Of a stretch of DNA of 64,000 bases, positions 2,273 through 33,706 are shown one piece after another. How positions within the stretch are numbered: the first letter of the stretch is position 1; each line of letters begins with the position of its first letter. The notes below the pieces were generated by a model that did no database searches, had not been told where the DNA came from, and saw only the letters and a list, made by a program, of their open reading frames with translations. Origin of the DNA: Planctomycetaceae bacterium (GTDB taxonomy: Bacteria; Planctomycetota; Planctomycetia; Pirellulales; PALSA-1355); the NCBI GenBank assembly GCA_003153375.1, contig PLYM01000174.1, forward strand, positions 15,007 through 79,006, written 5' to 3'. The translations under genes were made by a program, and so were the position numbers.

Positions 2273-2315
2273 GGAAAGTTGATTCCGACAGTCGCCGTGC
2301 CCTCGGCGCGCGTTC

Positions 2316-6354: not shown

Positions 6355-6707
6355 GGCATCAGCATACACGGCAAGAAAGCCGCGTCCAACAACCCGCCCC
6401 CTCCGCACCGGGACGGCGGGAAATCGTTGCAATAACCGCCGCGGTGCGCTACGAATTTCGTGTGGGTGCCAGGCGAAACCGCGGCCGACCAAGGACCGGA
6501 GTCGGACCCGATCGCTCGGCCCTATCGAACGCCGCTCGGACATCACACGCTCGTGCTTCCACATCTCGAATTGTCCAGCGGAAACTGTAGAAAATAGAAG
6601 AAACGGGTAAGCCGACGGGCGGATGTCAAGGGCCTGCGCTGCCCTTCGCCAAAATTTGTCTGGCGAAGGTATTTTGTCGCGAGACCATCCGCGCGACACA
6701 GGCTACA

Positions 6708-9564: not shown

Positions 9565-12378
9565 TTGATGCGCCCCGCCTGTGGCAGTCCGTGCGGCGAA
9601 CGATCGGTCCGGCAAGTTTCGGAAGCATCATCCTTGGCGACTTACGATGAGGCGATCGCACGAGCTCGGCAACACCTCGGTGCCGGCGATCTGAGCTCGG
9701 CCGAAGTCATTTACCGCCGCGTGCTCGAAGCAGTGCCCCGGGCGGCCGAGGCCTGGCACGAGCTGGGCATCGTGCTACTGCAAACGGACCGTGGCGACGA
9801 GGCGGCCCCCTGCTTGCGGCAAGCCGTGGGGCTGGCGCCATCGACCACGATCTTCCACGTCAACCTGGCGGCGGCATATCGAATGCTCCGCCGTCCCGAG
9901 GAAGCGATCGCCAGCTATCGGCAGGCGTTGCAGCTGGGACCTCCCACGGCCGAACTTCTGAATAACTTTGCCCTGGCGCTGAAAGACTTCGGCCAGGCAG
10001 AAGCCGCACTCGAAGCATTCGACCAAGCGCTCAGCCTGCGACCCGATTATGCGAACGGGCATTTCAATCGCGGAAACCTGCTGCTGGACCTGGGCCGGTT
10101 GGATGCGGCCTCGGAGAGTTATCGCCGGGCGATCGACCTGGTGCCGAGCGATGCGTTTGCCCATTGCAAATTGGGGATGGTTTATTTCGAGCAGTCGGCG
10201 CCGGAGGATGCGGACTCGACCGAGACCCGTGCCTCGCGCAACGAACGGCTGACTGAGGCCGTGGTTTGCTTCGAGCGCGCCGTACACTTGCAGCCTGACT
10301 ATGTCGAAGCCGTGGTGAACCTGGCGGTAGCCCATGAACGGGCGGGGCGCTGGACCGCCGCGGAACATTGTTGGCGGCGGGTGCTGGAATTGAATCCAGC
10401 GCAGGCGGCGGCGCATGCCAGTCTGGCCGCGATTTTGGAGCGGCAAGACCGAATCGAGGAGGCTGTGGTCGAATGTCGGCGAGCGCTGGAGTTGCAACCC
10501 GATTTCCCCGAGGCTCTGAGCAACTTGGGCACCTTGCTTTCCAAGCAAGGCCACGGCGAGGCGGCCGCGGAGTGTTGGCGGCGGGCGATTGAATTACAAC
10601 CGGAGTTTGTGGCGGCCTACAACAATCTCGGCGGGTGGCTCAGCCACCAGGAACATTGGGACGAAGCAGCAGCCTGTTATCGCCGGGCAATCGACCTCCA
10701 GCCGGAATCGGCCGACGGGCACGGCAACCTGGCGGGCGTGCTGGCCAGGCAGGACAAGCCCCTTGAGGCTCTTGCCGAATATCGGCGGGCGCTGGAGCTG
10801 CGGCCCAATTTTCCCGAGATGTACAACAACCTGGGCGGCGTCTTGGAGGCCGTGGGCAAATTCGACGAGGCCATCGAGTGCTGCCGGCGTGCCGTGGAAA
10901 TGAAGCCCGATCTGGCCGCGGCTCGTGGCAACCTGGGAATGCTGCTGTCGGGGCAGGGCAGGGTGGATGAGGCGCGAGCGTGTTATGAACAAGCGATCGC
11001 GATCGAACCGCTCGAGCCCGCCTGGAAGCTGAATCGACTGACGTTGTGCCCGACGGTGTTTGCCAGCAACCGTGAGATCGACGACTATCGGCGACGCTTG
11101 CTCGAAGAATTGGCCCTGTTCGACATCGGCGGGCTGGATCGTGATTTTCCGAACCGGGCGACGGCGGGTTGCATGCCGGCATTCAACTGGCAATTCCACG
11201 GACGCAACGATCGTCCACTGCGAGAAGCCTATGCCCGGCTGTTTCGGGGCTGCTTTGACCAGGAGACCGCGCCGGGTTCGTCCGGCAGGCCGCGCGTCGG
11301 CATGGTGGTCACGCATGCGCATGAAGGCGCGTTCGCTCGCTCTCTGGGTGCGGTGCTCGAGCGGATGGATCCCCAGCGGTTCGAACTGGTGATCATCGGA
11401 CCCGAGCGCGGCGTGGGCACGCTACGCTCGGCGATCCGCGGTGAGCACGTCCGCATCGTGGGCGTCGCGAATCAGCTCGAACGGTTCGTGGCGGCGATCC
11501 GCGCGGAACAGCTCGACGTGGTCTACTATTGGGAAGTGGGCACCGATCCGGTGAATTACTTCCTGCCGTTTCATCGGCTGGCCCCCGTGCAGTGCACTTC
11601 GTGGGGAATTCAGGTCACCTCAGGCATTCCTCAGCTGGACTACTACTTGTCGAGCGCGCTGGTCGAGCGCGACGACGCGCAACAGCACTACACCGAAAAA
11701 CTGATGCTGGCCGACACGCTGCTCACGTTTCAACGGCGCTCGGCGCGGCAGGGACCGGTTCTGCAGCGCGAGGCGTTTGGCATCCAGCGTGACCGGCATG
11801 TTTATTTGTGCGCGCAGCAATTGGGAAAGTTTCAGCCCGATTTCGATCCGATCCTGGCCGGCATCCTGCGGCGCGACGAACAAGGCCTGGTGGTGGTCAC
11901 CGGCGATCGTCAGGGGGGGCCGATTGCAAACATGCTGCGCCGACGATTTGAGTCTGCAATGCCCGATGTCGTCGAACGGATCGTTTTTTTGCCGATGCAG
12001 CCGACGGGCGAGTACTTGAATCTTGTGGCCGCGGCCGACGTGCTGCTCGATCCGTTGCACTTCGGCGGCGTGAACTCGAGCTACGACGGGTTTTCGCTGA
12101 ACCAGCCGATCGTCACGCTTCCCTCGGCCTTTCAACGCGGCAGGTATACGCTGGGGTGCTACCAGAAGATGGGGGTCTTCGACTGCGTGGCGACCGACGC
12201 CGAGCACTATGTCGATATCGCGGTTGCCTTGGGCACCGATTCGAGTCGCCGCGCCGAGGTCGTCCAAAAGATTCGCGGCGCGAGCGACGCGCTGTTCGAA
12301 GACCACTCGGCCGTCATGGAGCACGAGCGGCTTTATGGTGAATTGATCGAGCTTGCTCGCGAGCAGCGGAATTCCTGA
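9565..12378 (+). CDS. TPR + GT41 O-GlcNAc-transferase-like protein, paralogue 2
   Basis: 937 aa, collinear with paralogue 1 over its whole length (ATYDEAIARARQHLGAGDL..., YYWEVGTDPVNYFLPFHRLAPVQCTSWGIQVTSGIPQLDYYLSS, QQLGKFQPDF). Confidence 0.85.
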   Translation: MMRPACGSPCGERSVRQVSEASSLATYDEAIARARQHLGAGDLSSAEVIYRRVLEAVPRAAEAWHELGIVLLQTDRGDEAAPCLRQAVGLAPSTTIFHVNLAAAYRMLRRPEEAIASYRQALQLGPPTAELLNNFALALKDFGQAEAALEAFDQALSLRPDYANGHFNRGNLLLDLGRLDAASESYRRAIDLVPSDAFAHCKLGMVYFEQSAPEDADSTETRASRNERLTEAVVCFERAVHLQPDYVEAVVNLAVAHERAGRWTAAEHCWRRVLELNPAQAAAHASLAAILERQDRIEEAVVECRRALELQPDFPEALSNLGTLLSKQGHGEAAAECWRRAIELQPEFVAAYNNLGGWLSHQEHWDEAAACYRRAIDLQPESADGHGNLAGVLARQDKPLEALAEYRRALELRPNFPEMYNNLGGVLEAVGKFDEAIECCRRAVEMKPDLAAARGNLGMLLSGQGRVDEARACYEQAIAIEPLEPAWKLNRLTLCPTVFASNREIDDYRRRLLEELALFDIGGLDRDFPNRATAGCMPAFNWQFHGRNDRPLREAYARLFRGCFDQETAPGSSGRPRVGMVVTHAHEGAFARSLGAVLERMDPQRFELVIIGPERGVGTLRSAIRGEHVRIVGVANQLERFVAAIRAEQLDVVYYWEVGTDPVNYFLPFHRLAPVQCTSWGIQVTSGIPQLDYYLSSALVERDDAQQHYTEKLMLADTLLTFQRRSARQGPVLQREAFGIQRDRHVYLCAQQLGKFQPDFDPILAGILRRDEQGLVVVTGDRQGGPIANMLRRRFESAMPDVVERIVFLPMQPTGEYLNLVAAADVLLDPLHFGGVNSSYDGFSLNQPIVTLPSAFQRGRYTLGCYQKMGVFDCVATDAEHYVDIAVALGTDSSRRAEVVQKIRGASDALFEDHSAVMEHERLYGELIELAREQRNS

Positions 12379-14811
12379 TTGGTGACTCGCTCATTTTGCG
12401 AAAGTGCGGCCGTGGCCACTTACGAAAAAGCGATTTCGCGGGCTCGAGAGGTTCTTGGCGCTGGCGATTTGCCTCAGGCCGAGGCCATTTATCGGCGGAT
12501 TGTCGTAGCCGTGCCGCAGGCCGCCGAGGCCTGGCACGAACTGGGCCTTCTGCACCTGCAAACGGGCCGTGAGCAGGGCGCCGTTGAGTATTTGCACCAG
12601 GCCGTGTCGTTGGCTCCCCGCGAGGCGGGGTACGCCGTCAACCTGGCCGCGGCGTATCGGCGGATCGGCCGGCCACATGAGGCACTGGCGATGGTCGAGC
12701 GGGCGTTGAGACTCCGCCCTGACTTTGCCACGGGGCACTTCAATCGCGGCAATCTTTTGTTCGATCTCGATCGATTCGCCGAGGCAGCTGCAAGTTATCG
12801 CCGCGTCGTCGAGCTACTTCCCAATGACGCGGTCGCCCACTGCAAGCTTGGCCTTGCTCATTTGGAGCTAAGCCGGGATGACCTTGCAAAAACAGCCGGC
12901 CCCGTTCGGCTCGATCGATCCGCACCGGTATTGCGTCGAGAGCATCTTGAGCAAGCCACGAGATGCTTTCGGCTCGCCAGCCAGCTACAGCCGGAATATG
13001 CCGAGGCCTTTGGCAATCTGGCGATTGCCCTGACGGATGAAGCCGATTTGGCCGAGGCCAATGGCAAGGACGATTCGGCGCGCTTGCACGAGGCAGCCGA
13101 CTGCTGGGGACGGTCGTTGGAATTGCAGCCCGGCAGCGCCCAATCGCATGCTTGTCTGGCGGCGGTGTTCGAAAAACTGGGTGACTTCGCCGCGGCGATC
13201 GCTAGCTGGCGTGCCGCGATTGAACTCGATCCGACCTTCGCCGAGGCGCACCATAACCTGGGCGTGCTGCTTTCCAAGCAAGGGCGACTCGATGACGCGG
13301 CGGCTTGTTGGCAACGGGCACTGAATCTCAAGCCCGAGTTTGCCGACGCTTGGGGTAATCTGGGCGTTCTGTTCTCGCAACAAGGACGGATTGCCGAAGC
13401 CAGGCAGTGTTTCCAGAGGGGTCTGGAACTCCAACCCGATCAGGCCGCGTGGCGACTGAACATGATCTCCCTTTGTCCGCCCGTTTTTGAGAGTCGCGAG
13501 CGAATTGCCGAGTATCGTCGCACGTTGCTGGATGAGTTGAAGTCGCTCGGCGATAGCCAACCCGATTTGGATCTGGCGGCGTTGGCGGCAGGGGCTTGTA
13601 CGCCGTCGTTTAATCTCCAGTTTCACGGAATCGATGAACGCCCGACCCGCGAGGCCTACGCCAGGATCTACAGCCGCCGCTTTCCCAGTGAGACCCCACG
13701 CGGCACGGCGGGACGAAGGCGAATCGGATTTGTCGTCACCGATCAACATGAGACCCTGTTCATCAGGTCGCTGGGTGCCGTACTCGAGCGTCTGGATTGC
13801 AATCGATTCGAGCTTGTTGTCATCGGCTCAGAGCGCGGAACGAGCACCCTTCGATCGGGGATCGCAAACGAGGCAATCCGTTATCTCGGTGTGCCACATC
13901 GCCTCGACCGTTACGTCGCGGCAATTCGCTCGGCGCAGGTTGATCTCCTTTATTATTGGGAAGTCGGCACCGATAGCCTCAACTATTTCCTGCCGTTCCA
14001 CCGGCTCGCTCCCGTTCAGTGCACGTCTTGGGGAATTCAAGTCACCTCGGGCATCCCGGCCTTGGACAACTACCTTTCGAGTTCACTGGTCGAACCTGCT
14101 GACGCGCCGTCTCACTACACCGAGCAGCTTGTGCTCGCCGACACGTTGTTGACCTATCAACGGCGCGTGGAAATGGACGGCCCGTTGAGACAGCGCGAGT
14201 CATTTGGAATCGGGCCCGATCGGCACCTATATCTCTGTGCGCAGCAGCTAGGAAAATTTCATCCCGACTTCGATGCCATTCTGGCCGGCATTCTCCGGCG
14301 CGACGCCCAGGGCACGGTCGTGGCCACGCACGATCGGCGCGGCACGGTTGTCGCCGAGGAGTTGCGACGCCGGCTGATCGTTCAGATGCCCGACGTCGCC
14401 GATCGCGTCGTGTTTCTCCCCTTTCAGGCACCGCGCGAGTACTTGAGTCTGATCGTGGCCGCGGACGTGTTGCTCGATCCGTTGCACTTCGGCGGCGTGA
14501 ATTCGACCTACGACGGCTTTTCGTTGAACCAGCCAATCGTCACCCTGCCCTCGGCCTTTCAACGAGGCCGTTACACCCTGGCGTGCTACCAGAAGATGGG
14601 CCTGGACGAGTGCGTCGCGGTTGACGCCAGCCACTACATCGACATGGCCGTGCGATTGGCTTGCGACGCGGATCATCGGCGGGCAGTCGTCGAGCGAATT
14701 CGCCGGGCGAGTGCCGTGCTCTTCGAGGACGTGCAAGCCGTCCGCGAGCACGAGCGCATCTTTAGCGAGCTCATTGAACGCTCTCATTCTCTCAGTCGCA
14801 CGAGCGTCTAG
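12379..14811 (+). CDS. TPR + GT41 O-GlcNAc-transferase-like protein, paralogue 3 (shorter TPR array)
   Basis: 810 aa. It starts directly after the stop of paralogue 2 (TTG 12379 or GTG 12382). Same C-terminal catalytic region (YYWEVGTDSLNYFLPFHRLAPVQCTSWGIQVTSGIP, QQLGKFHPDF). Several TPR units present in paralogues 1 and 2 are missing. Confidence 0.85.
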   Translation: MVTRSFCESAAVATYEKAISRAREVLGAGDLPQAEAIYRRIVVAVPQAAEAWHELGLLHLQTGREQGAVEYLHQAVSLAPREAGYAVNLAAAYRRIGRPHEALAMVERALRLRPDFATGHFNRGNLLFDLDRFAEAAASYRRVVELLPNDAVAHCKLGLAHLELSRDDLAKTAGPVRLDRSAPVLRREHLEQATRCFRLASQLQPEYAEAFGNLAIALTDEADLAEANGKDDSARLHEAADCWGRSLELQPGSAQSHACLAAVFEKLGDFAAAIASWRAAIELDPTFAEAHHNLGVLLSKQGRLDDAAACWQRALNLKPEFADAWGNLGVLFSQQGRIAEARQCFQRGLELQPDQAAWRLNMISLCPPVFESRERIAEYRRTLLDELKSLGDSQPDLDLAALAAGACTPSFNLQFHGIDERPTREAYARIYSRRFPSETPRGTAGRRRIGFVVTDQHETLFIRSLGAVLERLDCNRFELVVIGSERGTSTLRSGIANEAIRYLGVPHRLDRYVAAIRSAQVDLLYYWEVGTDSLNYFLPFHRLAPVQCTSWGIQVTSGIPALDNYLSSSLVEPADAPSHYTEQLVLADTLLTYQRRVEMDGPLRQRESFGIGPDRHLYLCAQQLGKFHPDFDAILAGILRRDAQGTVVATHDRRGTVVAEELRRRLIVQMPDVADRVVFLPFQAPREYLSLIVAADVLLDPLHFGGVNSTYDGFSLNQPIVTLPSAFQRGRYTLACYQKMGLDECVAVDASHYIDMAVRLACDADHRRAVVERIRRASAVLFEDVQAVREHERIFSELIERSHSLSRTSV

Positions 14812-15116
14812 CGCAACGGCAATAGCACGTCACGTCGTTCTCGTGCTCGCACGAATGTGTTCCGCAAGGGCCCATTTCTTGCGCAATTGCGCACTCGGCG
14901 GCCCGATATTCTCGCGCTGGTGTGAACGATTCTTGCAACCTGCCCGGTCCACGTTCTCATCGCGAATTGCCTGACCGGAATAAGAACAACAGCGATTGGA
15001 TGGAATCGTCCAAAAGGGTGAAAAATTCGTAGACGGCTGGAGGCTCACATGGCCATAATCCGATTGTCGTTTTTTCCGTTTAGGGCTGAACGGAAGACGA
15101 TCATTTCCCTTCTCCA

Positions 15117-17816
15117 TTGCATGACGCATCCATGGCAAACGTGACAGACTCTAATTTCTGGCCACCGATTCCGTTTTCTGACACCGAGCACGCGACGCAG
15201 TCGACGCCGACTTCGCGTGCGCCGGCCGATGGACGCGGCAACGATGTTTGGCAAGTCGCGGAGCGCAGCACGATTGAGTCGCAACCCGCGATCGCGGCGC
15301 TGGCGATGGCCGTGCGCCATCTGTTCGACCATCACGGCGACCGCGTTGTCTGGAATGAACCACGGTCCAGCTCGGACGAGTCGCCGGCGAGCGATCCGTT
15401 CGTGCGATTCGATCCCCCACACGGTCCCGACGCACCCGCCGCGCCGGTTGGGCCCACCGTTCCGGCTGCGCAGGAGCATAGCGCGCGTGAGGCGACGCCG
15501 TGGCTGGTGATTGTCGATCGATTGGGTGAACTATTCAGCGCGGGTCGCTTTTTGCAGTTGCAAGAAGCCCGTCGGCAGACTTCGCAACTTCTGGTCATTG
15601 CTTACGACATACCGGGAGCGCCCGCCGGCGCAATCTCTCCCGATGAAACGATCTCTCGCCAGTTGGACGACCTGGTTGGCCAGTTAGGTTGCGACTATGT
15701 CGGTCCCATGGCGGGCCGCGACCTGTCATCGCTGGTCGACGTGTTGGACCGAATCAAGCGGGATGGCCGCCCGACGCTGCTGCATCTGCAGACGTCGACC
15801 AGCAACCGCGGCGCAGCGCGGCCTGTTGACGTGGTGACACCCACCGAGCCGAGCGTCGACGCGCGCGAAGTCGGAGTGGCCGAGTCGCTGCGCAATTTCG
15901 CCAGTCAGGAACTGGCCACTCTGGCACGGCGCGACGAGCGGATCGCGCTCGTTTCGACTAGCTCAACGGCCGAATTCGTGCGACCGTGGGAAGCCCTGGG
16001 CGAACGCCTGTTTCCCGTGGGCGCCGACGCGCCTTCGGCTCTACGTTGGAGCGCCAGTTTGGCCGCCAGCGGAATTCGACCCTTTGTATTTCTGTCCTGG
16101 GAGGAGGCTCAAAACGGCTTTGGGCCGATTCGTCAGGACATCTGCCTGCGCGGGGCAGCGGTTACGCTGATCATCGAGGCCCGGGATGATGCGAATCTGA
16201 AGCCCCCGTTCTCTTCGGCCGGGCTGGCTGGAATTCGCCAGTTGCCGAACGTCTGCTTGCTCTCGCCCAAGGACACGCTCGAGTTGCGGCAGATGCTCTC
16301 CTGGTGCGCGTCGCAATCGGGACCGGCGGTGGTTTGGCTGCCGCAGGACTACGACTCCCAATGGGGCTGGACAAGCGGTGCGGAAGTCACGCGCGGCCGA
16401 GCGCAACAACTGTCGGAAGGTGGCGACGTGGCCATCGTGGCCTGGGGGCCGATGGTCGAGGCAGCCGCGTTGGCTGCCGACCGTCTGGCGGTCGAGGGCA
16501 TCCGAGCCGCGGTGCTCAATGCGCGTTTTGCGCAACCGCTGGACGTCGAGACGATCGGCCGCGTCGTCCGCGGCGCCCTGTGCGCGGTGATCGTATCCGA
16601 CGCGGACGAGCAAGGGGGCTTTGGCGGCTGGGTGCTGGAGCGATTATTGGCGCTGGGGATCACGCAACCCGTGTCGATCGTGGCGCCGCCCGAAAGTGCG
16701 AATCGGCAACGCCCGCACGAAGCGCAGGAATTGTGTGCGCGGACCCTCGTCGAGCGCTGCCGCTGGTTGGCGGCGCCGATTATGCCCGACGTGACGATCG
16801 AGCCGGCTGCACCGCCGGTCGAGCTTAAGTCGGCACCGGATAAATGGTTGGAATTCCGCTCCACCCGCGCCGACAGCATGGCCGACGAACGGGCGCAAGT
16901 CTATGCCCGGCAACTATCTTCGGACGTTTGGCGGTGGGTCCGGGCGTACGAGAAAGTCGGGTCGCGTGACCTATATTTGTGGAAATGGTGCATGCATGGA
17001 GTTGCGCTTACGACGCTGCCTTGCGTCGAGCCCGAGCTGCGCGCGCATGTGTGCGACACGAAATTGCTGTCGATCGTTTTGTGCGTTCTGTTGGACGATG
17101 TCGCCGATCAGCATGGCGATGGCCGACTGCTGGAAGCGTTGCTGGAGATGACATGCACGGGAGCGTCTCGCTCGCTGCGAGGATTGAGCGCGGCCGCCAA
17201 GCGGCACGCGGAAGTGACGCGCCACGTCTGGTCGGAATACCAGGCGCGCATTGCCACCTATCCGCGGCGCGCGACCTTCGAGCCGGTGTTGCGCTTCGAC
17301 CTGTTGCAATTCTTCAACACGATGCGCTACTCGCACCTGGTCAACAGCCGTCCGTACCTGCTGAACATGGCCGAGCACGATCTGTACACCTCGCACAACA
17401 TGATGATGGTCAGCTTTTCGACGCTCGACTTGATGTGCAGCCCCGACTTTCCGGCGGCCGAAGTGGGTTTGCTGCGCGAGGCGATGTGGCATGCGCAATG
17501 CATGGGCCGCATCGGCAACTTGCTGAGCACCTGGCGGCGCGAGCTGGCCGATCGCGATTTCACCAGCGGGCTCTTCGCCCGCGCGGTGATGGAAGGCGAC
17601 CTGACGCTCGAGGAGTTGGAGCACGGCAACCTGGCCAAGATCGAGTCCACGATTCGTCTGAAGGGGCACGAGTCGCATTTCTATCGCAAGTGGATGGATC
17701 ATCGCGAACTGTGCCATGCACGAGCCCGGCGGATTCGCTCGTACGACATGCAGAACGTAATGGACGGACACGATCGGTTTTTTGCCATGCACATGGGAAG
17801 TCAAGGTTTGATTTAA
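15117..17816 (+). CDS. Fusion protein: degenerate 1-deoxy-D-xylulose-5-phosphate-synthase-like (transketolase-fold) region + C-terminal class-I terpene-synthase-like domain
   Basis: 899 aa (TTG 15117; first ATG 15132). Residues ~55-590 are collinear with Dxs (GCDYVGPMAGRDLSSLVDVLDRIKRDGRPTLLHLQT; DVAIVAWGPMVEAAALAADRL...LNARFAQPLD). The ThDP motif GDG..NDN reads VDR..AYD. The C-terminal ~300 aa carry DDVAD (res 660-664) and NLLSTWRRE (res 801-809). The coding call is solid; the functional call is an inference. Confidence 0.7.
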   Translation: MHDASMANVTDSNFWPPIPFSDTEHATQSTPTSRAPADGRGNDVWQVAERSTIESQPAIAALAMAVRHLFDHHGDRVVWNEPRSSSDESPASDPFVRFDPPHGPDAPAAPVGPTVPAAQEHSAREATPWLVIVDRLGELFSAGRFLQLQEARRQTSQLLVIAYDIPGAPAGAISPDETISRQLDDLVGQLGCDYVGPMAGRDLSSLVDVLDRIKRDGRPTLLHLQTSTSNRGAARPVDVVTPTEPSVDAREVGVAESLRNFASQELATLARRDERIALVSTSSTAEFVRPWEALGERLFPVGADAPSALRWSASLAASGIRPFVFLSWEEAQNGFGPIRQDICLRGAAVTLIIEARDDANLKPPFSSAGLAGIRQLPNVCLLSPKDTLELRQMLSWCASQSGPAVVWLPQDYDSQWGWTSGAEVTRGRAQQLSEGGDVAIVAWGPMVEAAALAADRLAVEGIRAAVLNARFAQPLDVETIGRVVRGALCAVIVSDADEQGGFGGWVLERLLALGITQPVSIVAPPESANRQRPHEAQELCARTLVERCRWLAAPIMPDVTIEPAAPPVELKSAPDKWLEFRSTRADSMADERAQVYARQLSSDVWRWVRAYEKVGSRDLYLWKWCMHGVALTTLPCVEPELRAHVCDTKLLSIVLCVLLDDVADQHGDGRLLEALLEMTCTGASRSLRGLSAAAKRHAEVTRHVWSEYQARIATYPRRATFEPVLRFDLLQFFNTMRYSHLVNSRPYLLNMAEHDLYTSHNMMMVSFSTLDLMCSPDFPAAEVGLLREAMWHAQCMGRIGNLLSTWRRELADRDFTSGLFARAVMEGDLTLEELEHGNLAKIESTIRLKGHESHFYRKWMDHRELCHARARRIRSYDMQNVMDGHDRFFAMHMGSQGLI

Positions 17817-18000
17817 GGATGCTCCGAAGAGCACCGAAACGCTTCCGCCGACGCGGGCGCATTCGGCGGCTGTCGAAGTGTTCTGGAGAGCGCACGGACC
17901 AGAGCCGGCGGTTGGTGCCGCCCGGGGCCCTGCTGGAGTGCACGCGGTCTGGCGTCCGGCGCTCGATCGGGAACAACGATTGCCTCGGCCTGGACCAACA

Positions 18001-21000
18001 ATGACAGCGCGCCTTTTAAAGCGATTCGCCGCGCACTACATCCTGGTGATGATGTGCGTTACGCGCGCCTTTGCGTTTGTTGCGGGCGGGCTGTGCATTT
18101 TCTACGTTAACCTCACATTCCACCTCTCGCTCTATACGCAACGGCATTTCGAGATTACGGCGGTGGGCGTCATTCTGTTGACGGCCGTGCTGACCGTGGT
18201 CCTGGCGCTATGGGAGACCCGAGACCTGCGGCGGGCCCTGGCGGCGCTCAGCAAGGGCGAACCCGTCGATCGGGCGACCGAATTGGCCGCGGGCCGGCAG
18301 GCCGTGCTGTTCCCGGGCCGGCACGCTTTGTACGAGGCGCTCCTCGATCCGTTCATCACGGTGCTGCCGTTGTGCGTCGTGCTGCACTTTGCCGACGGCG
18401 CTTCGGTTCAGGTCATGGTGCAAGTGGGCATTGCCGGCTTCATGGGGCTGGCCGCGATTATCATCACAACCTTCTTTATCAGCGAGCACTGGCTGCGGCC
18501 CGTCGTGCAATATCTGCTCGACAAGGGCCTCTCGGTTGCTTACTCCGAAATGCCGGAGTCGAAACTGCAGTTCCGCATGACGGTCTGCTTCGGACTGACG
18601 ACCGCGGTGACCGGCCTGATGATCGGCGCGCTGGCGAACCAGCGGGCCATGGACATCATCGCCGAGCCAGAGAAACAGGCCGAGGCCGTGGCCAGCTTGC
18701 GCGAGCACACGGCCTTCATCATGGTGTTTGCCATTTTCCTGGGCTTGTTCCTCTCGCGCATGCTGTCGAACTCGATCGCCAGCCGGGTGCGGCTGATGGT
18801 CAACGCCATGCGCCAGGTGCAACAGGGCCGGCTCAGCGAACGCTTGCATCCGACCGGCAACGATGAGCTCGACATCCTGGGGCGGCAATTTAACGTGATG
18901 GTCGAGCAATTGGACCAGAACGACCAGACGATTCGCGATCTGAATTCCGGATTGGAACGCAAGGTCAAGCGCCGCACGCGGCAGTTGTCGCGCAGCCGAC
19001 GCAGCCTCAAGCGATCGCTGGACAAACTGACGCAATACGATCGTTTGAAGACCGAGTTTTTCTCGAATGTCAGCCACGAACTACGGACGCCGCTGACGAT
19101 GATCCTGGCTCCGGTCGATCGACTGTTGAACCGCTCCGCCGGGTCGCTCGGGGCCGACACGACGAACATGCTCGAGATGGTCCGGCTCAATGGATACCGG
19201 CTGCTCGACCTGATCAATCGGCTGTTGGATTTTTCGAAGCTCGAAGCCGGGCAGATGAAGCTTCAGCTTGGTCCGGTGAACATCAACGGCGTCGTGCAAA
19301 AGCTGGTCAACGCCGCGACGCCCCTGGTCGAGCAGCGGGCCATCCGCTTCGAGGTCGCCTGCGATCCAGACCTGGGCGATTTCGGCGCCGACCACGAGAA
19401 GGTCGATACCGTCGTGAGCAATTTGATTTCGAACGCGATCAAGTTCACGCCGCAGGGAGGCACGATCCGCGTCGAAACGCGCAAGGATGAAGAGCGGGTC
19501 TGGGTTTCGATCACGGATACGGGCATCGGCATCGACCCGTCGCAACGCGACCGCATTTTCGAGCGGTTCGTGCAAGTCGACGGCTCGTCGTCGCGCGAAT
19601 TCAGCGGCACCGGTTTGGGGCTCTCGTTGGTCAAGGGCCTGGTCGAGCTGCACGGCGGCCAGATTCACGTCGATAGCGAGTTGGGAAAAGGCTCGAAATT
19701 CTGGTTCGATTTGCCGCTGCGGCCCGTGGCGGTCGACACGGCCACCGAGCACGTCGAGGGCCCCGAAAAGATCGCCAAGCCTTTTGCCGATCTCGATAGC
19801 TTTGCCGAGATGCCCTCCGCCGAGCAACCGTCACTCGCGCGGCAAGCCAATCCGTTTGCCCGGACCGTGCTGGTGGTCGACGACACGACCGAAATGCGCG
19901 TGTTGTTGGGCGAAATCCTCAGCGACCATTACCGGGTCATTTTTGGCCGCGACGGCCAGGAGGGCATCGACGTTGCCGAACGCGAACATCCCGACCTGAT
20001 CATCTCGGACGTGATGATGCCGCGCGTGGACGGGCATCAGTTCTGCCAGCGGATGAAAGAGAATCCTGAAACGGCTCACATTCCTTTCGTCATGCTCACG
20101 GCCAAAGCCGAACTGGCGATGAAGATCGGCGGGCTCAACTGCGGAGCCGACGATTACCTGACCAAGCCGTTTGACGAGCAGGAACTCAAGGCTCGCGTCA
20201 AGTCGCTCTTGAAGGTCCGCGGATTGCACCAGGATCTCGAGCGTCGTAACCGCGAACTGCGCACCGCGTACAACGATTTGCAGGCCGTGCAAAATCAGTT
20301 GGTGCAAGCCGAAAAGATGAGTTCGCTGGGGCAGCTTATTGCCGGCCTGGCTCATGAAATCAACAACTCGATCAACGCGGTCTATAACGGCATCAAGCCG
20401 TTGTCGGCAGGCACGCATCGCTTGGAATCGATCTGGTCCGAGGTGCTCTCGTCGCCCGAGTTGAACGCGCAGCCCGAGCGACGCGGCGAAGTCGAGGCCC
20501 TGTTCAAGAAGATCTTCTCGCTGGCCAAGGTGATCGAGACCGGCGCCACGCGCACCGCTCGGATCATCGGAGACCTGAAGAGCTTCTCGCACCCGGGGAA
20601 CGAGCACTTCCAGATCTTCGACCTGCACGAGTCGCTCGACATGTGCGTCAACTTGCTCTCGAACGCCATTCGCCACCGCATTCAGGTGCACCGCGACTAT
20701 GGCTCGATCGGCCGTGTCTACGGTCCGAGTGGTCAGCTCAATCAGGTGTTCATGAATGTGCTTCACAACGCGCAACAAGCCATCGAGGGTGAAGGCGATA
20801 TCTACATCACCACGCGCCAGGTGGCCGAAAGCGTGATCGTCAGTGTCCGCGATACGGGCCCGGGAATTCCCAGCTCGATCCGCGACAAGATATTCGACCC
20901 CTTCTTCACCACGAAAGAGCCGGGCGTGGGCACCGGCATGGGGTTGTCGCTGAGCTTCAGTCTGATTGCGAAGCTCGGCGGCACGATCGAATGCCTTAGT

Positions 21001-21117
21001 AGTGAGGGACAAGGTGCCGAGTTTGTCATTCGCTTCCCTTGCGTGGCGGAATCGCCGCCGGAAGTGGAAGAAGACGAATCGGAAATGGGTTTTGTTATTG
21101 AAAGGGCTGGAGTATGA
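18001..21117 (+). CDS. Hybrid sensor histidine kinase: multi-TM sensor, HAMP, HisKA/HATPase, receiver, second HisKA-like/HATPase core
   Basis: The track ORF begins at 17878; ATG 18001 (MTARLLKRF...) precedes the first TM helix. H-box FFSNVSHELRTPLTMI. G-boxes GTGLGLSLVKGLVELHGG and GVGTGMGLSLSFSLIAKLGG. Receiver VLVVDDTTEMR...ISDVMMPRVDG...TAKA. Second H-box LIAGLAHEINNSINAV. Confidence 0.9.
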   Translation: MTARLLKRFAAHYILVMMCVTRAFAFVAGGLCIFYVNLTFHLSLYTQRHFEITAVGVILLTAVLTVVLALWETRDLRRALAALSKGEPVDRATELAAGRQAVLFPGRHALYEALLDPFITVLPLCVVLHFADGASVQVMVQVGIAGFMGLAAIIITTFFISEHWLRPVVQYLLDKGLSVAYSEMPESKLQFRMTVCFGLTTAVTGLMIGALANQRAMDIIAEPEKQAEAVASLREHTAFIMVFAIFLGLFLSRMLSNSIASRVRLMVNAMRQVQQGRLSERLHPTGNDELDILGRQFNVMVEQLDQNDQTIRDLNSGLERKVKRRTRQLSRSRRSLKRSLDKLTQYDRLKTEFFSNVSHELRTPLTMILAPVDRLLNRSAGSLGADTTNMLEMVRLNGYRLLDLINRLLDFSKLEAGQMKLQLGPVNINGVVQKLVNAATPLVEQRAIRFEVACDPDLGDFGADHEKVDTVVSNLISNAIKFTPQGGTIRVETRKDEERVWVSITDTGIGIDPSQRDRIFERFVQVDGSSSREFSGTGLGLSLVKGLVELHGGQIHVDSELGKGSKFWFDLPLRPVAVDTATEHVEGPEKIAKPFADLDSFAEMPSAEQPSLARQANPFARTVLVVDDTTEMRVLLGEILSDHYRVIFGRDGQEGIDVAEREHPDLIISDVMMPRVDGHQFCQRMKENPETAHIPFVMLTAKAELAMKIGGLNCGADDYLTKPFDEQELKARVKSLLKVRGLHQDLERRNRELRTAYNDLQAVQNQLVQAEKMSSLGQLIAGLAHEINNSINAVYNGIKPLSAGTHRLESIWSEVLSSPELNAQPERRGEVEALFKKIFSLAKVIETGATRTARIIGDLKSFSHPGNEHFQIFDLHESLDMCVNLLSNAIRHRIQVHRDYGSIGRVYGPSGQLNQVFMNVLHNAQQAIEGEGDIYITTRQVAESVIVSVRDTGPGIPSSIRDKIFDPFFTTKEPGVGTGMGLSLSFSLIAKLGGTIECLSSEGQGAEFVIRFPCVAESPPEVEEDESEMGFVIERAGV

Positions 21118-22283
21118 AACGCGACATCCTGTACGTCGACGACGAGCTTGAAAACTTGATCGTATTTCAAGCCACGTTCGACGACTATTTCAATGTCGTG
21201 TCCGCCGACAGCGGACAAGAGGCGCTCGACCTGCTGGCCACGCGGGCGTTTCCCGTGGTCGTGGCCGATCATCGCATGCCAAAGATGACGGGCGCTGAAT
21301 TGTTCGAGGTCATGCGCATCAAGTTTCCGCACACCAAGCGCGTGATGCTCACCGGCTATGCCGATTCGAAAGCCATGCTGAGCGCCATCAATCAGGGGCA
21401 CGTGTTCCACTTTCTCAAGAAGCCTTGGGAACAGGACGTCGTATTCTCGATCCTGGTTCGCGCGATCGAAGCCTATGACATGGGCATCTCAAACATGATG
21501 TTGCAGGACCGGCTGGTGGCGGCCGACCGCTGCGCCATGCTCGGCCGCTCGGCCGCGCAGTTGGCCCACGAGATGGGCAACCAGCTGTGCATGCTGCCGC
21601 TCTTGGAGTTGATCGAGGAAGAGTATAGCCAGCACGAGGACCTGGTGCGGATGGCCGGCTTTGCCCGCACGACCCACGAACGCCTGGTGCAGATCATCAA
21701 CGAAGTGAAGGCCTTCGTACGCTTCGAGCGCGAGCAAGTGATCGCTCAGCCCGTTGGGCTGGCGCACGTGTTGCACGAGCTGGTCGAATTCCTGCGCTAC
21801 GAGCGCAATTTGCCGTTGGCTCGTTTGAGCGTCGATATCAACGCCGAGCCGTGGGCCAAGGCCAACCGAGTGAAGATTCAGCAGGTGCTGTTGAATTTGC
21901 TGAAGAACGCCGCCTTCGCAATCCGCGATCGCGACACCGGACATGTGACGTTGCGGCTGTCGGCCGCGGGCGACGAGGCCGTGATCGAGGTCATCGACAA
22001 CGGCTGCGGTATGACCGAGGACGTCGTGCGGCGGATTTGGGAGCCGTTCTTTACCACCAAGGGCGAGGAGGGAACCGGCCTGGGTCTCGACGTGGCCAGG
22101 TCGATCATCGAAGCCCATGGCGGCACGATCGATTGCACGAGCGAGGCCAACCGTGGCTCGCATTTCACGATTCGACTGCCGCGCGTCGAATCGGCCAGTG
22201 AAATCAAACCGCGCGAACCGGCGCCGCCGATTACGGTGCCCGTCGGTCCATTCGCGCAACCATTAGTTCCGCAAGTGTCGTAG
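21114..22283 (+). CDS. Response-regulator receiver fused to a histidine kinase core (REC-HK)
   Basis: 389 aa. Receiver DILYVDDELENL...VVADHRMPKMTG...LKKPW. H-box AAQLAHEMGNQLCML. HATPase EGTGLGLDVARSIIEAHGGTI. ATGA overlap with the upstream kinase. Confidence 0.9.
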   Translation: MKRDILYVDDELENLIVFQATFDDYFNVVSADSGQEALDLLATRAFPVVVADHRMPKMTGAELFEVMRIKFPHTKRVMLTGYADSKAMLSAINQGHVFHFLKKPWEQDVVFSILVRAIEAYDMGISNMMLQDRLVAADRCAMLGRSAAQLAHEMGNQLCMLPLLELIEEEYSQHEDLVRMAGFARTTHERLVQIINEVKAFVRFEREQVIAQPVGLAHVLHELVEFLRYERNLPLARLSVDINAEPWAKANRVKIQQVLLNLLKNAAFAIRDRDTGHVTLRLSAAGDEAVIEVIDNGCGMTEDVVRRIWEPFFTTKGEEGTGLGLDVARSIIEAHGGTIDCTSEANRGSHFTIRLPRVESASEIKPREPAPPITVPVGPFAQPLVPQVS

Positions 22284-22332: not shown

Positions 22333-23289
22333 ATGAAGATTCTGCTCGTCAGTCCGCGCGGATTTTGCGCGGGAGTGAACATGGCGATTGAAGCCCTGGA
22401 GCGGGCCATCGTGATGTTCGGAACGCCGCTCTACGCGTTTCACGAAATCGTCCACAATCGCCACGTCGTCGAGGGTTTTCGCCGCAAGGGCGTGGTCTTT
22501 GTCGACCAGGTCGAAGAAGTTCCGTCCGGCAGCCACCTGATGGTCAGCGCCCACGGCGTGGCGCCGGCCGTACACCAGGCGGCCCAGGCTCGCAGCCTGC
22601 GGATCATCGATGCCACCTGCCCGTTGGTGCGCAAGGTGCACCTGGCGGCGATTCGCTTTGCGCGGCTAGGCTATTCGATTGTGCTGATCGGCCATCGAGG
22701 TCACGACGAAGTCGTGGGCACCCTGGGCGAAGCGCCGGAACGCATGACGCTCGTCGAGACTGTCGCCGACGTTGACCAGCTGGAAGTGCCCGACCCCGAG
22801 AAGGTCGCCTATTTGACGCAGACCACGCTCAGCGTCGACGATGCCAACGTGATCATCGATCGCCTGCGGCAGCGATTTCCCAAATGCGTCGGTTCGCTCA
22901 AGGAAGACATCTGCTATGCCACCCAGAACCGCCAGGAGGCGCTCAAGGCCGGCGTCGAGCGGGCGGACGTCGTGTTGGTCTTCGGCAGTAAGAACAGCTC
23001 GAACAGCATCCGCCTGACCGAGGTGGCCGCCGAGCACGGCCGTCCCACGCACCTGATCGACAGCGTGGCCGAGCTGCAGCCCGAATGGTTTCGCGGTGAT
23101 GAGACGGTGCTCATCACGGCGGGAGCCAGCGCGCCCGAGGAGCTCGTGCTCGAGTGTATCGAGCACCTCAAGAACACCTATGGGGCAACGGTTGAGCATC
23201 AGGCAGTTCGCGAAGAACACGTTGAGTTTCCCTTGCCGATCGAAGTTCGCGGGCTGCTGAGCAACCCGTCAGCGGCCGCGCGATCGTAA
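22333..23289 (+). CDS. ispH: 4-hydroxy-3-methylbut-2-enyl diphosphate reductase (MEP pathway, last step)
   Basis: 318 aa, collinear with E. coli IspH/LytB: MKILLVSPRGFCAGVNMAIE, DATCPLVRKVH, LTQTTLSVDD, DICYATQNRQEA, GSKNSSNS. All three Fe-S cysteines are present. Confidence 0.97.
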   Translation: MKILLVSPRGFCAGVNMAIEALERAIVMFGTPLYAFHEIVHNRHVVEGFRRKGVVFVDQVEEVPSGSHLMVSAHGVAPAVHQAAQARSLRIIDATCPLVRKVHLAAIRFARLGYSIVLIGHRGHDEVVGTLGEAPERMTLVETVADVDQLEVPDPEKVAYLTQTTLSVDDANVIIDRLRQRFPKCVGSLKEDICYATQNRQEALKAGVERADVVLVFGSKNSSNSIRLTEVAAEHGRPTHLIDSVAELQPEWFRGDETVLITAGASAPEELVLECIEHLKNTYGATVEHQAVREEHVEFPLPIEVRGLLSNPSAAARS

Positions 23290-23491
23290 AGGTTTGCCCA
23301 GGCTGCCGGCCACAGTGCTCCGGTGTTCACGATTGCGTAATCGGTGCTTTAGATGCGGACCGTGCGCGGACGATTAAGGCTTTGCCGTCCCGCAACTTGC
23401 GCGCGAGTGGTTGCGGGTTAGGCAAGCTTTAACGGATTGCCAAGCCTTGCCGGCGGTTTTTCCGCGGCACACCAGCGAGGGAGCGCGGTCG

Positions 23492-24778
23492 ATGATCATG
23501 CGCCGAATTCTCGGTCTGTTGCTATCGGCCGCCATCTGTTGTCAGGCCCCCTTCGCTTGGGCGGACGGCCTGATACGCGATGGTGTGGGCCCTATTTCGA
23601 CGGGCCGTGGCGGCACGAACCAGGGCTTTGCCGACAATGCCGCGATCATCCTCGATAACCCCGGGGCCATGGTCAACGTCAACGACAACGGCCTGGCCGA
23701 GTTGGGTGTCGACACCGTCATCTCGAACGTCCATTACACCGATCCGTTCAACGACGTCGAGAGCAAAACCCGCCCGCTGCCGATGCCGGTGTTGGGCTAT
23801 ATCGAAAAGAGTGAAGACGGCCGCTGGGCATTCGGCATTGGCGCCTTTGCGCCGGCCGGGTTTGGAGCCGCCTACGGCAATCTGAACAACCCTTTGTTGG
23901 GTTCGAACAACATGCGTTCGATTGGCGGCCTGGCCAAGATTCTGCCCGGCATTTCCTATGGCGTCACCGACCGGCTGTCGATCGGCTTGACCGTCGGCGT
24001 TGCCTTCAGCGACGCCGAGTTGCGTGGGCCGTTGGTCGTGCAGCAGCCGCCTTTGACGGGACTGCCGGCGATCATGAGCTTGCACGGCTCGGGCGTGGCA
24101 CCCACGGGCTCGCTGGGCATGCAGTATCGACTGACCGACAGCACGATGTTTGGTGCCACGTATACCGAGCAGACGAACTTCGACTTGCACGGTGGCAGCG
24201 ACGCCAACCTGCTGGTGGGTCCGCCGTTCGGCGTGATCTCAAGCCATTTTGACTCGAAGTTTCGTCTGAAGTGGCCGCGCTCGGTCGCCGTGGGCATCAA
24301 GCACGAGCTTTGTCCCCATCGCCGCATTGGCGTCGACGTGGTCTGGTACGACTGGGCACACGCCTTCGATCAGATCAACCTGCAGTTCAGTAACCCCACG
24401 AATCCGATTGTCGGCGCACTGGCGCCGCTACCAATTCGCGACATCCTGCCGCTCAACTGGATCGATTCGGTTACCCTACGCCTCGGCTATGAATGGGATC
24501 CGACGGACATCGACACCTGGCGCATCGGCTATGCTTATCACCATAGCCCGGCGCCCAATTCGACGCTCAACCCCTACCTGGACGGCGTCCTCGAGCACCA
24601 GTTCAGCGCCGGCTATAGCCGCAAGTTCGAGCGAGCCACGCTCAACCTGGCGTATCAGTACTGTTTCGGGCCGACGCGAACCGTGACCAACAGTGCGATC
24701 ATCGGCGGGCTGTTCGACAACACGACGATGAGCGCTCAGGCTCAGTTCGTGATGATCAGCTTGCTGGTGCCGTTCTAG
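23492..24778 (+). CDS. Outer-membrane transport protein, OmpP1/FadL/TodX family
   Basis: Signal peptide MIMRRILGLLLSAAICCQAPFAWADG (the track ORF starts earlier, at 23411). N-terminal hatch-like GVGPISTGRGGTNQGFADNAAIILDNPGAM. Alternating beta-strand pattern and a C-terminal Phe (LLVPF). Confidence 0.75.
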   Translation: MIMRRILGLLLSAAICCQAPFAWADGLIRDGVGPISTGRGGTNQGFADNAAIILDNPGAMVNVNDNGLAELGVDTVISNVHYTDPFNDVESKTRPLPMPVLGYIEKSEDGRWAFGIGAFAPAGFGAAYGNLNNPLLGSNNMRSIGGLAKILPGISYGVTDRLSIGLTVGVAFSDAELRGPLVVQQPPLTGLPAIMSLHGSGVAPTGSLGMQYRLTDSTMFGATYTEQTNFDLHGGSDANLLVGPPFGVISSHFDSKFRLKWPRSVAVGIKHELCPHRRIGVDVVWYDWAHAFDQINLQFSNPTNPIVGALAPLPIRDILPLNWIDSVTLRLGYEWDPTDIDTWRIGYAYHHSPAPNSTLNPYLDGVLEHQFSAGYSRKFERATLNLAYQYCFGPTRTVTNSAIIGGLFDNTTMSAQAQFVMISLLVPF

Positions 24779-26012: not shown

Positions 26013-26903
26013 TTAGAGCCGCGCCAGCCGGAAGGGTGGTAGAAGCTTGCCCTCGCGCAAGAGCGCGAACAGGCCGGCAGCGATGAGGTCGGCCGTCGTG
26101 CCGGGATTGCGCTGGTGCCCGTCGGCACGGAGCCAGAAATCAAAATCGGCCAAGGCCTCTTCAAAGGCTTCGTCGCGCGAGTCGCCCGCGGCGAGCACGT
26201 CGCGCGCCAGGGCCGCCGCCTTGTGGGCAACCTCGACGCCGCGCCGGCGGGCGATCAGGCTATCAGGATACTCGCTCAAGAGCTCCAGATGCACGCGCAC
26301 GATCGCATCGGACAGCGACAGCCCCGCTTCGACCGTCTGTAACAAGCGTGGGGCGACGACGTTGAGGACCAGGTGGAAGTTGTCTGTATATTGCCGAGCC
26401 ACGAGGTCGCGATCGGCCGCCAGCCGCATGGCCGCCACCAGATCGGCCGGGGCATCCTGGGCCACGTCGGCTGATTCCACCTGCCCAAGGCCTCCGGGGT
26501 TGGCCGCGCGGATGGCCTGGTAGACGTCGCGGGCGTCGTCGGCGGTGAGCCGGCCCAGCACCTCCGCGATCCCGGCGGCCAGGGTCGTCGTGCGCGGCAC
26601 CTTGGCCAAGGGCGCGAGCAACAAGATCGTACCCAGGTTGGTATTGGTGGCCACGGCTGCCTGGGTGGCTTCGATGGCCGCCAATATGGTTTGGCCCAGC
26701 GGCAGCATGACGGCGGTATCCAAAATGGGGCCGACGACCGTGGTCGCCACGATGAAGTCCGGATAGCTCAAGTCCTCGAAGTCAGCTCCCCGGTGCACGT
26801 TGCCGGGCTTGGGCGCCGTGGCTTCCATGATTGTCGCCAGGGTAGCGCACTGGCCAATCGAAAGCTGGCCGAGGCGATTCGGTTCGATCGATGAATGGCT
26901 CAT
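26013..26903 (-). CDS. Triphosphoribosyl-dephospho-CoA synthase (CitG/MdcB) family protein
   Basis: 296 aa. EATAPKPGNVHRGADFEDLSYPDF matches the E..tPKPG.V..(x)..D motif of the CitG family; also NTNLGTILLLAPLA. No citX, mdcG or acyl-carrier gene is nearby. Confidence 0.75.
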   Translation of the reverse strand: MSHSSIEPNRLGQLSIGQCATLATIMEATAPKPGNVHRGADFEDLSYPDFIVATTVVGPILDTAVMLPLGQTILAAIEATQAAVATNTNLGTILLLAPLAKVPRTTTLAAGIAEVLGRLTADDARDVYQAIRAANPGGLGQVESADVAQDAPADLVAAMRLAADRDLVARQYTDNFHLVLNVVAPRLLQTVEAGLSLSDAIVRVHLELLSEYPDSLIARRRGVEVAHKAAALARDVLAAGDSRDEAFEEALADFDFWLRADGHQRNPGTTADLIAAGLFALLREGKLLPPFRLARL

Positions 26904-29013: not shown

Positions 29014-29250
29014 GATGCCTGCCTCGAAGCAAAAAGAAAGGCTTCCGCCCGTTGACGGAAGTACTTAGCCCAACATCCTTTGTAGCGGCCGAGCGACGCG
29101 GAGTCAATAAAGGACGCATTTTGCGGCCGCCGGCCGGATTCTTGCCGTTTGCGCGGCGTGGAGTCGGGTAGAATTCGGCTGCCAAGCGGCCCGGGCCGTG
29201 AGGTAAAATTAAGTGTTCGGCCGCTGTGGCCATGAGAATCCGAGGTATCC

Positions 29251-31434: not shown

Positions 31435-31481
31435 GCCGATTGCCAGCCGCCAATCGCGAGTCGAACCGCGTGATGTAGCCG

Positions 31482-32813: not shown

Positions 32814-32879
32814 GGCTCGGCAGTCGGTTGGCAGCTCGAAAATGAATCAGAACGGCGAACGGGGCCGCGAACAGCCAAA

Positions 32880-33587: not shown

Positions 33588-33706
33588 GAAAGGACTCGAA
33601 GCGCGAGACGGGAATCTGTTCCGAGGCTCTAGTTTCGCATAGGCGCGACGCAAGTCAAGCCGCACACTCGACTTGTCGACTCAGACGGACGGCCCGCGAG
33701 GGCCCG

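Follow-up and report, generated by a model that had tools for sequence, protein, structure and literature searches.

A predicted DXS-like pseudo-enzyme fused to a class I terpene-synthase-like domain and encoded beside a histidine kinase and IspH in Planctomycetota

Introduction

What might a protein do that carries the outline of the first enzyme of isoprenoid synthesis, apparently stripped of its catalytic residues, ahead of a domain with the metal-binding motifs of a terpene synthase? Such a protein is encoded in the stretch of DNA analysed here (the window: 64,000 nucleotides, positions 15,007 to 79,006 of the forward strand of contig PLYM01000174.1, assembly GCA_003153375.1, from a Planctomycetaceae bacterium). 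A preliminary description of its open reading frame (ORF) at 15117-17816, made from the letters alone, had proposed a catalytically degenerate relative of 1-deoxy-D-xylulose-5-phosphate synthase (DXS), the first enzyme of the methylerythritol phosphate (MEP) pathway, fused to a class I terpene-synthase-like domain. Judged by sequence, the N-terminal part is homologous to DXS, has none of its thiamine diphosphate (ThDP), Mg and substrate residues left and is in that sense a pseudo-enzyme, and residues 585-899 have the modelled fold of a class I terpenoid synthase together with both Mg-binding motifs. The fusion gene lies in a block with a histidine kinase, IspH and a FadL-type channel. In several bacterial groups, relatives of the C-terminal domain are encoded beside a membrane sensor kinase, which hints at a signalling or biosynthetic unit linked to isoprenoids that is as yet undescribed.

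Results

Layout of the fusion protein

The ORF comprises 899 codons from a TTG, and because orthologues from independent assemblies all start with MANVTD, translation probably begins at the ATG at 15132, which yields a protein of 894 amino acids (aa). The fused ORF was seen again in more than 25 independent contigs from metagenome-assembled genomes (MAGs), so that a chance ORF is ruled out. The nearest relatives of the window protein come from Planctomycetota MAGs only, mostly named Pirellulales, and the G+C content of the window (~62%) is even throughout. The protein and its parts are laid out as follows:

15117..17816, + strand: fusion-protein ORF, 899 codons from TTG (894 aa from the ATG at 15132)
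15285..15356, + strand: relic of the DXS N-terminal helix and strand, residues 57-80, AIAALAMAVRHLFDHHGDRVVWN against VELTxALHxVFDxPxDxxxWDxGHQ, with the His of GHQ lost
15492..15794, + strand: shrunken relic of the DXS ThDP-diphosphate (PP) domain, residues 126-226, with GDG and LNDN lost
15888..16376, + strand: pyrimidine-binding-domain-like fold (DXS domain II), residues 258-420, predicted local distance difference test (pLDDT) 80-93, orthologue identity 0.53
16377..16772, + strand: Transketolase_C-like domain (DXS domain III), residues 421-552, PF02780 E 2.5e-19, with Gln at the equivalent of R478
16773..16868, + strand: linker, residues 553-584, predicted disordered and poorly conserved
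16869..17813, + strand: class I terpene-synthase-like all-helical domain, residues 585-899, orthologue identity 0.66
17094..17108, + strand: DDVAD, residues 660-664, an Asp-rich motif at the C terminus of a long helix
17517..17543, + strand: NLLSTWRRE, residues 801-809, an NSE-type triad (N801/T805/E809) placed towards the C terminus of a long helix

Mean pLDDT in the AlphaFold model of the whole protein is 67, with disorder predicted at residues 1-57, 81-125, 227-255 and 554-584; in it, residues 130-225 form a modest alpha/beta remnant, and residues 258-420 and 430-552 form confident domains. Mean identity among ten full-length orthologues rises along the protein, from 0.37 in the relic of domain I to 0.53-0.55 in domains II and III and 0.66 in the C-terminal domain.

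The N-terminal part is related to DXS and appears catalytically dead

Several searches connect the N-terminal part with DXS. Pfam recognises Transketolase_C at residues 427-527 (E 2.5e-19) and the last 40 positions only of DXP_synthase_N at residues 186-226, phmmer against the sequences of the PDB returned D. radiodurans DXS (E 1e-26, residues 189-561), and Foldseek with the full model filled all 50 listed ranks with 49 DXS structures and one DXPS-like enzyme (best E 3.9e-24). The significant likeness covers residues 186-561, and identity to real DXS is ~27%. A three-domain transketolase-like fold is present in the model, with domains II and III confident and domain I as a partial relic only. 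MAFFT alignment with seven real DXS sequences is colinear from about residue 60 to 560, including the relic ELSxALxxLFDxxxDQVVWN, in agreement with the earlier proposal that residues ~55-590 follow DXS along its whole length. The dxs equivalog model TIGR00204 scores 118.6 bits, below its cutoff of 465.95, and spans dxs positions 233-580 only.

We then compared the active-site positions in alignments with the seven DXS sequences and with four fusions that retain an intact DXS part (see below). The GGH, DVGHQ and GH(H80) segments are lost or deleted in the window protein, which bears out the reported absence of the DVGHQ histidine region. The ThDP/Mg motifs GDG and LNDN are unrecognisable; the preliminary description had read them as VDR and AYD, and while their loss stands, that exact register does not, since MAFFT places it differently by one or two columns. 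In the segment that carries the catalytic Glu, for which a replacement of AIAEQHAV had been described, IAEQH of DXS indeed becomes ADAPS, with Ala305 at the position of the Glu. Further along, YSTFLQR is replaced by LSWEEAQN and PRG by PQD, and DRAG..DG.TH is gone. Domain II is without equivalents of Y392, R398, R420, D427 and H431, which, along with R478, we take to be the substrate residues of DXS (E. coli numbering). A proper alignment thus leaves none of the ThDP and catalytic residues intact; all are replaced or deleted. From these losses and from the domain identities given above, we infer that the DXS-like part is dead as an enzyme and that its domains II and III are still constrained.

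Some segments are nonetheless well kept or newly fixed. The PP-domain relic (126-226), from which alignment with DXS shows the DXS-specific insert of ~50 residues to be deleted, closes with the well-preserved segment LGCDYVGPMAGRD...PTLLHLQT. At the end of the Transketolase_C-like domain, a CRWL motif (residues 548-551, window 16758-16769) is invariant in the degenerate clade, and neither real DXS nor the intact fusions have it; loss of catalysis may have been followed by the gain of a new interface here.

The C-terminal domain resembles class I terpene synthases

Class I terpenoid synthases use two Mg-binding motifs to bind and ionise a prenyl diphosphate. Both are found in the C-terminal domain, DDVAD at residues 660-664 and NLLSTWRRE at 801-809, at the positions and with the spacing of 141 residues first reported; the separation likened to that of D80 and N219 in pentalenene synthase is 139 residues when these are checked on the 1PS1 sequence. 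The putative metal ligands D660, D661, D664, N801, T805 and E809 are invariant in 15 sequences, and a wider alignment with standalone relatives (27-40% identity) has nine invariant columns that include both leading Asp residues and R808-E809. The second position of the NSE-type motif is Leu, a non-ligand for metal.

An AF2 model of the C-terminal domain by itself, built on 14 sequences, is all-helical with a pLDDT of 77.6. Each of the top 50 matches listed by Foldseek against the PDB is a terpene synthase or prenyltransferase, the best four being the bacterial class I synthases 7E4N, 9KGB, 9HR0 and 7ZRN, and the Foldseek probability is 0.9-1.0 for 49 of the 50 and 0.63 for one. Among 14 close relatives, three match the terpene synthase Pfam families (PF19086 / PF03936) below threshold (best E 0.0031), and the distant yet secure family members P0174 (34.6 bits) and P0175 (26.1 bits) exceed the Terpene_syn_C_2 gathering score of 23.7 with alignments that cover both metal motifs. 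The assignment as a terpene-synthase-like domain therefore holds for fold and motifs, and the Pfam threshold is reached by distant members but not by the window protein. We rejected a trans-prenyltransferase (PF00348) identity because the domain has a single DDxxD; its second motif is N..T..E, and there is no PF00348 match.

Sister fusions retain an intact DXS

Five Planctomycetota MAG loci, three of them from MAGs named Phycisphaerae or Phycisphaeraceae, encode a fusion of 913-936 aa with an intact DXS part:

L023:1527-4268, intact fusion
L028:3840-6587, intact fusion
L029:8174-10921, intact fusion
L032:8114-10924, intact fusion
L037:3227-6022, intact fusion

Their N-terminal part is full length, 41-43% identical to real DXS, and retains all catalytic motifs save for a change of DVGHQ to DVGNQ. 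The four that were scanned (L023, L029, L032 and L037) reach 705-730 bits with TIGR00204 against the 118.6 bits of the window protein, in line with the pseudo-enzyme that had been proposed for the latter. All motifs are lost in the window protein and in the fusions of L001, L005, L009, L013, L015, L024, L034, L035 and L038, and this degenerate group consists mostly of Pirellulales-type MAGs. A real dxs lies less than 10 kb from the pseudo-DXS fusion of L035. It also stands alongside the fusions of L011, L031 and L041, whose DXS-like parts are reduced; in L011, where the DXS-like part is shortened (637 aa), the real dxs and a farnesyl diphosphate (FPP) synthase gene are found just past FadL.

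Given that five MAGs have this fusion with its DXS part intact, the window protein looks, by its sequence, like a decayed form of it. A rough neighbour-joining tree of the domains puts intact and degenerate forms in separate clades and leaves the number of fusions and losses undecided. The active-DXS fusion is probably the ancestral state, an order which this tree does not settle, and the simplest history would start with a fusion of active DXS, which then decayed wherever a separate dxs took care of housekeeping.

A large family with variable N-terminal partners

A C-terminal profile scan of 1.84 billion representative proteins, clustered at 50% identity, recovered 726 clusters of the C-terminal domain family at E <=1e-3 and 389 at E <=1e-30. 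All family sequences found in these searches are of metagenome or MAG origin. Nearly all of the 120 relatives listed by a second search are without a precomputed Pfam domain, and every name given to them is "hypothetical protein"; some sources name fusion orthologues 'deoxyxylulose-5-phosphate synthase' or 'transketolase C-terminal domain/subunit'. The family has invariant motifs of its own (HNMxM, WHAQxMGRIGN and DFTSG).

Architectures were counted in 196 sequences (listed representatives plus cluster members), 177 of which match the C-terminal profile. In 86 of the 177 the domain is preceded by a DXS-like part that differs widely in length and quality, a further 57 are either fragments or standalone proteins, the latter about 330-360 aa long, and the remaining 34 carry other extensions, including PilZ (9), cyclic nucleotide monophosphate (cNMP)-binding (4), receiver (1), 3,4-dihydroxy-2-butanone-4-phosphate (DHBP) synthase (1) and helix-turn-helix (1) domains. 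In related clades the DXS-like part is cut to 250-430 residues or absent and the module neighbours are kept, which argues that this part is dispensable for the core function.

Cyanobacterial cNMP-binding proteins of 467 aa encoded beside 2-methylisoborneol synthase were considered as family members and rejected, solely on the basis that their layout presumably differs and that they are presumably shell proteins of the encapsulin type; on that view, their agreement in size with P0156 is coincidental. The contigs of P0156, P0193 and P0158 are too short for a reading of context.

The fusion gene is followed by a kinase, IspH and a FadL-type channel

Directly downstream of the fusion gene, the window contains the following genes:

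17878..21117, + strand: hybrid histidine kinase, its roughly six hydrophobic segments followed by HAMP, HisKA, HATPase, receiver and a second HATPase
21114..22283, + strand: receiver and histidine-kinase protein, its start overlapping the stop of the hybrid kinase
22333..23289, + strand: IspH/LytB, the 4-hydroxy-3-methylbut-2-enyl diphosphate (HMBPP) reductase of the last MEP step (Pfam LYTB E 1.2e-88; synteny)
23411..24778, + strand: FadL/TodX-family outer-membrane channel, of a kind that passes hydrophobic compounds (Pfam Toluene_X E 1.4e-27; synteny)

The hybrid kinase has no large periplasmic domain and a likely start at Met42 (~nt 18001). IspH passes both TIGR00216 (306 bits, cutoff 188) and NF002190 (396 bits, cutoff 389), and its top-scoring model, NF002188, gives 403.7 bits, under the cutoff of 420. 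The kinase block of the window is without a DNA-binding response regulator, and a promoter and terminator scan found fewer sites than in shuffled controls.

This arrangement recurs. A homologous kinase starts less than 1.5 kb, and usually less than 100 nt, downstream in 35 of 39 non-redundant Planctomycetota loci, and among the 27 loci with at least 8 kb of downstream sequence, IspH is present in 23 and FadL in 21. The same kind of hybrid kinase also comes after a PilZ fusion, and standalone genes have the same kinase partner, often with a receiver-HD response regulator ahead of IspH. Even 35%-identical members on contigs with mevalonate-pathway and cell-wall genes, a different genomic background, have a kinase 18 nt downstream and then a receiver; that kinase has at least seven membrane helices, so that both kinases read have multi-transmembrane N-termini. 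A polyprenyl synthase gene precedes one of these 35%-identical members.

Other genes of isoprenoid metabolism are also found in these clusters. dxs and an FPP synthase gene adjoin the cluster in L011, L031, L035 and L041. Where downstream sequence exists, the intact-fusion clusters have a geranylgeranyl-reductase-like flavoprotein and a divergent IspH paralogue between fusion and kinase, and one standalone member lies among two geranylgeranyl-reductase-like genes, a FadL-type gene and a polyprenyl synthase gene.

In seven loci with a standalone gene (L017, L021, L022, L030, L033, L043 and L055), a receiver-HD regulator lies near IspH, directly upstream of it in most (examples are L022:8513-9589 and L055:13440-14360; NosR-family cyclic di-GMP (c-di-GMP) phosphodiesterase model, E 1.9e-44). 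These regulators, together with the PilZ fusions, link the module to c-di-GMP. Riboflavin genes also occur by terpene-synthase-like genes: DHBP synthase is encoded just upstream in L055 (7438-8097, - strand), GTP cyclohydrolase II is encoded 1.3 kb upstream in L053 (6922-7677), and P0080 is called as a fusion of DHBP synthase with the terpene-synthase-like domain.

Discussion

We favour, with little better than even confidence, the view that the fusion protein is enzymatically active and ionises a prenyl diphosphate, its pseudo-DXS module having a structural or regulatory role. The C-terminal domain would then be the working part, binding an allylic diphosphate made downstream of IspH and turning it into a lipophilic isoprenoid. 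This product may act in the envelope or cross it, with FadL as the outer-membrane channel, and it may be tied to the adjacent membrane-embedded kinase as a signal or regulator. The pseudo-DXS module would no longer make deoxyxylulose phosphate (DXP) and could be retained for dimerisation, stabilisation or regulation, sitting in the N-terminal slot that PilZ, cNMP-binding or receiver domains hold in other members. As first suggested, this part may plausibly serve as a regulator or scaffold.

Several observations weigh against this proposal. The best-ranked Foldseek matches of the C-terminal domain have E values of only ~1e-2 and template-modelling (TM) scores of 0.45-0.53, and prenyltransferases match as well as cyclases do. 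Residues 572-899 searched by themselves give no Pfam match and no terpene synthase family even at E 10, and searches of PDB sequences with hidden Markov models (the C-terminal profiles A2 and A3, and P0174) returned nothing relevant. In hhalign comparisons with 1PS1 and with 22 aligned sequences of a pentalenene synthase clade, the family profile gave no significant match (probability 0.2), and the sole aligned stretch placed DDxxD on DDxxD. R887, a possible Arg of the RY pair, is invariant in the fusion clade only, and the position 46 residues ahead of N801, where a diphosphate-sensor Arg would usually stand, has no Arg. A pure ligand sensor would keep the metal motifs too, the IspH of the cluster may simply be the housekeeping copy, and conservation is what suggests a role for the pseudo-DXS part in the first place. 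The members of the C-terminal family are putative enzymes, known here from sequences and models.

The most serious competitor, which we nevertheless consider distinctly less probable than an active enzyme, is that the C-terminal domain is a non-catalytic receptor which binds isopentenyl diphosphate (IPP), dimethylallyl diphosphate (DMAPP), FPP or HMBPP via its Mg motifs and informs the kinase, or in the intact fusions DXS directly, of how large the isoprenoid pool is, as end-product feedback on the MEP pathway; the DXS part of the window protein would then be the dead remnant of a regulated enzyme. Such a receptor explains the link to pathway genes as well as an enzyme does: a two-component system accompanies the domain in several bacterial groups, the neighbouring ispH, dxs, ispA and polyprenyl synthase genes are possible regulatory targets, and fusion to the flux-controlling first enzyme suits a regulator better than an enzyme that acts eight or more steps downstream. 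DXS itself is reportedly feedback-inhibited by IPP and DMAPP. On the other hand, PilZ, cNMP-binding and receiver domains normally precede an effector and not a second sensor, the geranylgeranyl-reductase-type flavoprotein and the FadL channel resemble product tailoring and transport, and the partner kinases are multi-transmembrane at their N-terminus, although they may still touch the protein on the cytoplasmic side.

Two further explanations centre on the DXS-like part. It could pair with the real, dimeric DXS of the cell and thereby tether the terpene-synthase-like domain to the pathway entry, or inhibit DXS. Domains II and III carry much of the dimer contact of DXS (2O1X/2O1S structures) and are the parts best kept here, dead enzyme paralogues often inhibit the active enzyme, and a real dxs is close by in L035 and beside the reduced-DXS fusions of L011, L031 and L041. 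We regard such pairing as improbable in view of the low identity to real DXS (~27%) and of the related clades in which the DXS-like part is shortened or absent but the neighbours are kept. That the protein is instead a divergent but active DXS, with an unrelated helical extension whose motifs arose by chance, is hardly credible. The names given to some orthologues and the weak sequence evidence for terpene synthase homology would fit, but we rejected this candidate on the grounds that ThDP, Mg and catalytic residues are all absent and that the protein reaches a quarter of the dxs cutoff. Moreover, the C-terminal domain is the most conserved part, occurs alone in hundreds of clusters and has a modelled terpenoid synthase fold in which the motif residues are the most conserved positions of the family.

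If the C-terminal domain is an active enzyme, as we favour, a bolder and quite tentative extension is that the terpene-synthase-like family and the adjacent multi-transmembrane kinase form a widespread isoprenoid-based signalling module that is new to the literature. From what IspH produces, the enzyme would form a small lipophilic terpenoid, to be sensed by the membrane kinase and carried by FadL across the outer membrane. The N-terminal domain would tune synthesis in response to c-di-GMP (PilZ), through a cNMP-binding or receiver domain, or by precursor supply (active DXS), and the dead DXS of the window protein would be a frozen remnant of that control layer.

Known synthase-kinase pairs provide a possible analogy. 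In CqsA/CqsS (Vibrio) and RpfF/RpfC/RpfG (Xanthomonas), the synthase gene has as its neighbour the gene of a kinase that lacks a periplasmic domain and spans the membrane with five to seven helices. The putative synthase gene described here likewise adjoins a multi-transmembrane kinase gene (35 of 39 loci), and a receiver-HD response regulator, like RpfG, follows in standalone-type loci. By contrast, Pfam scans found no CqsA or RpfF homology, and the terpenoid signal is hypothetical, so that a similar way of working is possible but membership in these systems is not. If true, the signalling module would be the terpenoid counterpart of CqsA/CqsS or RpfF/RpfC; both folds are known, and such a counterpart would be categorically new.

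The separate parts of the fusion have closer relatives. DXS (TIGR00204; 2O1X, 2O1S and 6XXG) is colinear with the window protein, and domains II and III match in sequence and fold, but it has intact motifs and a full first domain and never has the 315-residue C-terminal domain. Bacterial class I synthases (PF19086; 1PS1, 10-epi-cubebol synthase 7ZRN and T-muurolol synthase 9HR0) share with that domain a single alpha-helical domain of ~310 residues and the pair DDxxD and N-x3-(S/T)-x3-E, each near the C-terminal end of a long helix; they differ in that identity is ~12-16%, Leu replaces Asp in the NSE motif, and no RY pair or sensor Arg could be placed. The nearest parallel to the intact DXS fusions is the fungal fusicoccadiene synthase PaFS (5ERO), a prenyltransferase-terpene synthase fusion joined by a flexible linker. 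Channelling is possible in such fungal fusions because the partner makes the immediate substrate, whereas DXS acts many steps upstream, the domain order is reversed, and the partner in the window protein appears dead. Streptomyces diterpenoid clusters hold extra MEP genes (dxs, ispH), and the intact-fusion clusters, with DXS, an IspH paralogue, a flavoprotein and a terpene-synthase-like gene, resemble this precursor-supply set; unlike there, DXS is covalently fused and has decayed in the lineage of the window, and the kinase pair is fixed in the cluster.

The preliminary description knew of no DXS-like fusion to a terpene synthase, and our literature search likewise found no description of such a fusion or of the C-terminal family. 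The fusion unites the first MEP enzyme with what would be a terminal isoprenoid enzyme, and the series from intact to decayed DXS illustrates how a pseudo-enzyme can arise inside a multidomain protein. Hundreds of clusters with a predicted terpene-synthase fold are missed by current annotation, and terpene genome mining therefore probably overlooks this family. The kinase pairing and the fusions to second-messenger receptors suggest a link between isoprenoid chemistry and bacterial signal transduction.

Other genes in the window

Directly upstream of the fusion gene lie three tandem paralogues (6708-9485, 9565-12378 and 12379-14811, + strand), each with a long TPR array and Glyco_transf_41, resembling O-GlcNAc transferase. 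TPR genes stand outside the conserved block, and in L001 a TPR protein is encoded downstream of FadL. Two overlapping ORFs, 29209-32475 (- strand, 1088 aa) and 31536-33632 (+ strand, 698 aa), have no Pfam match, and at most one of them is likely to be real. Sulfatases, a DUF1559 protein and a 3-keto-disaccharide hydrolase are encoded in the surroundings, as is usual in Planctomycetota. At 662-6699 (- strand) a DUF4185 gene stands in a run with three sulfatase genes, and CitG (26013-26903) and an alpha/beta hydrolase, farther along the window, are likewise ordinary planctomycete content.

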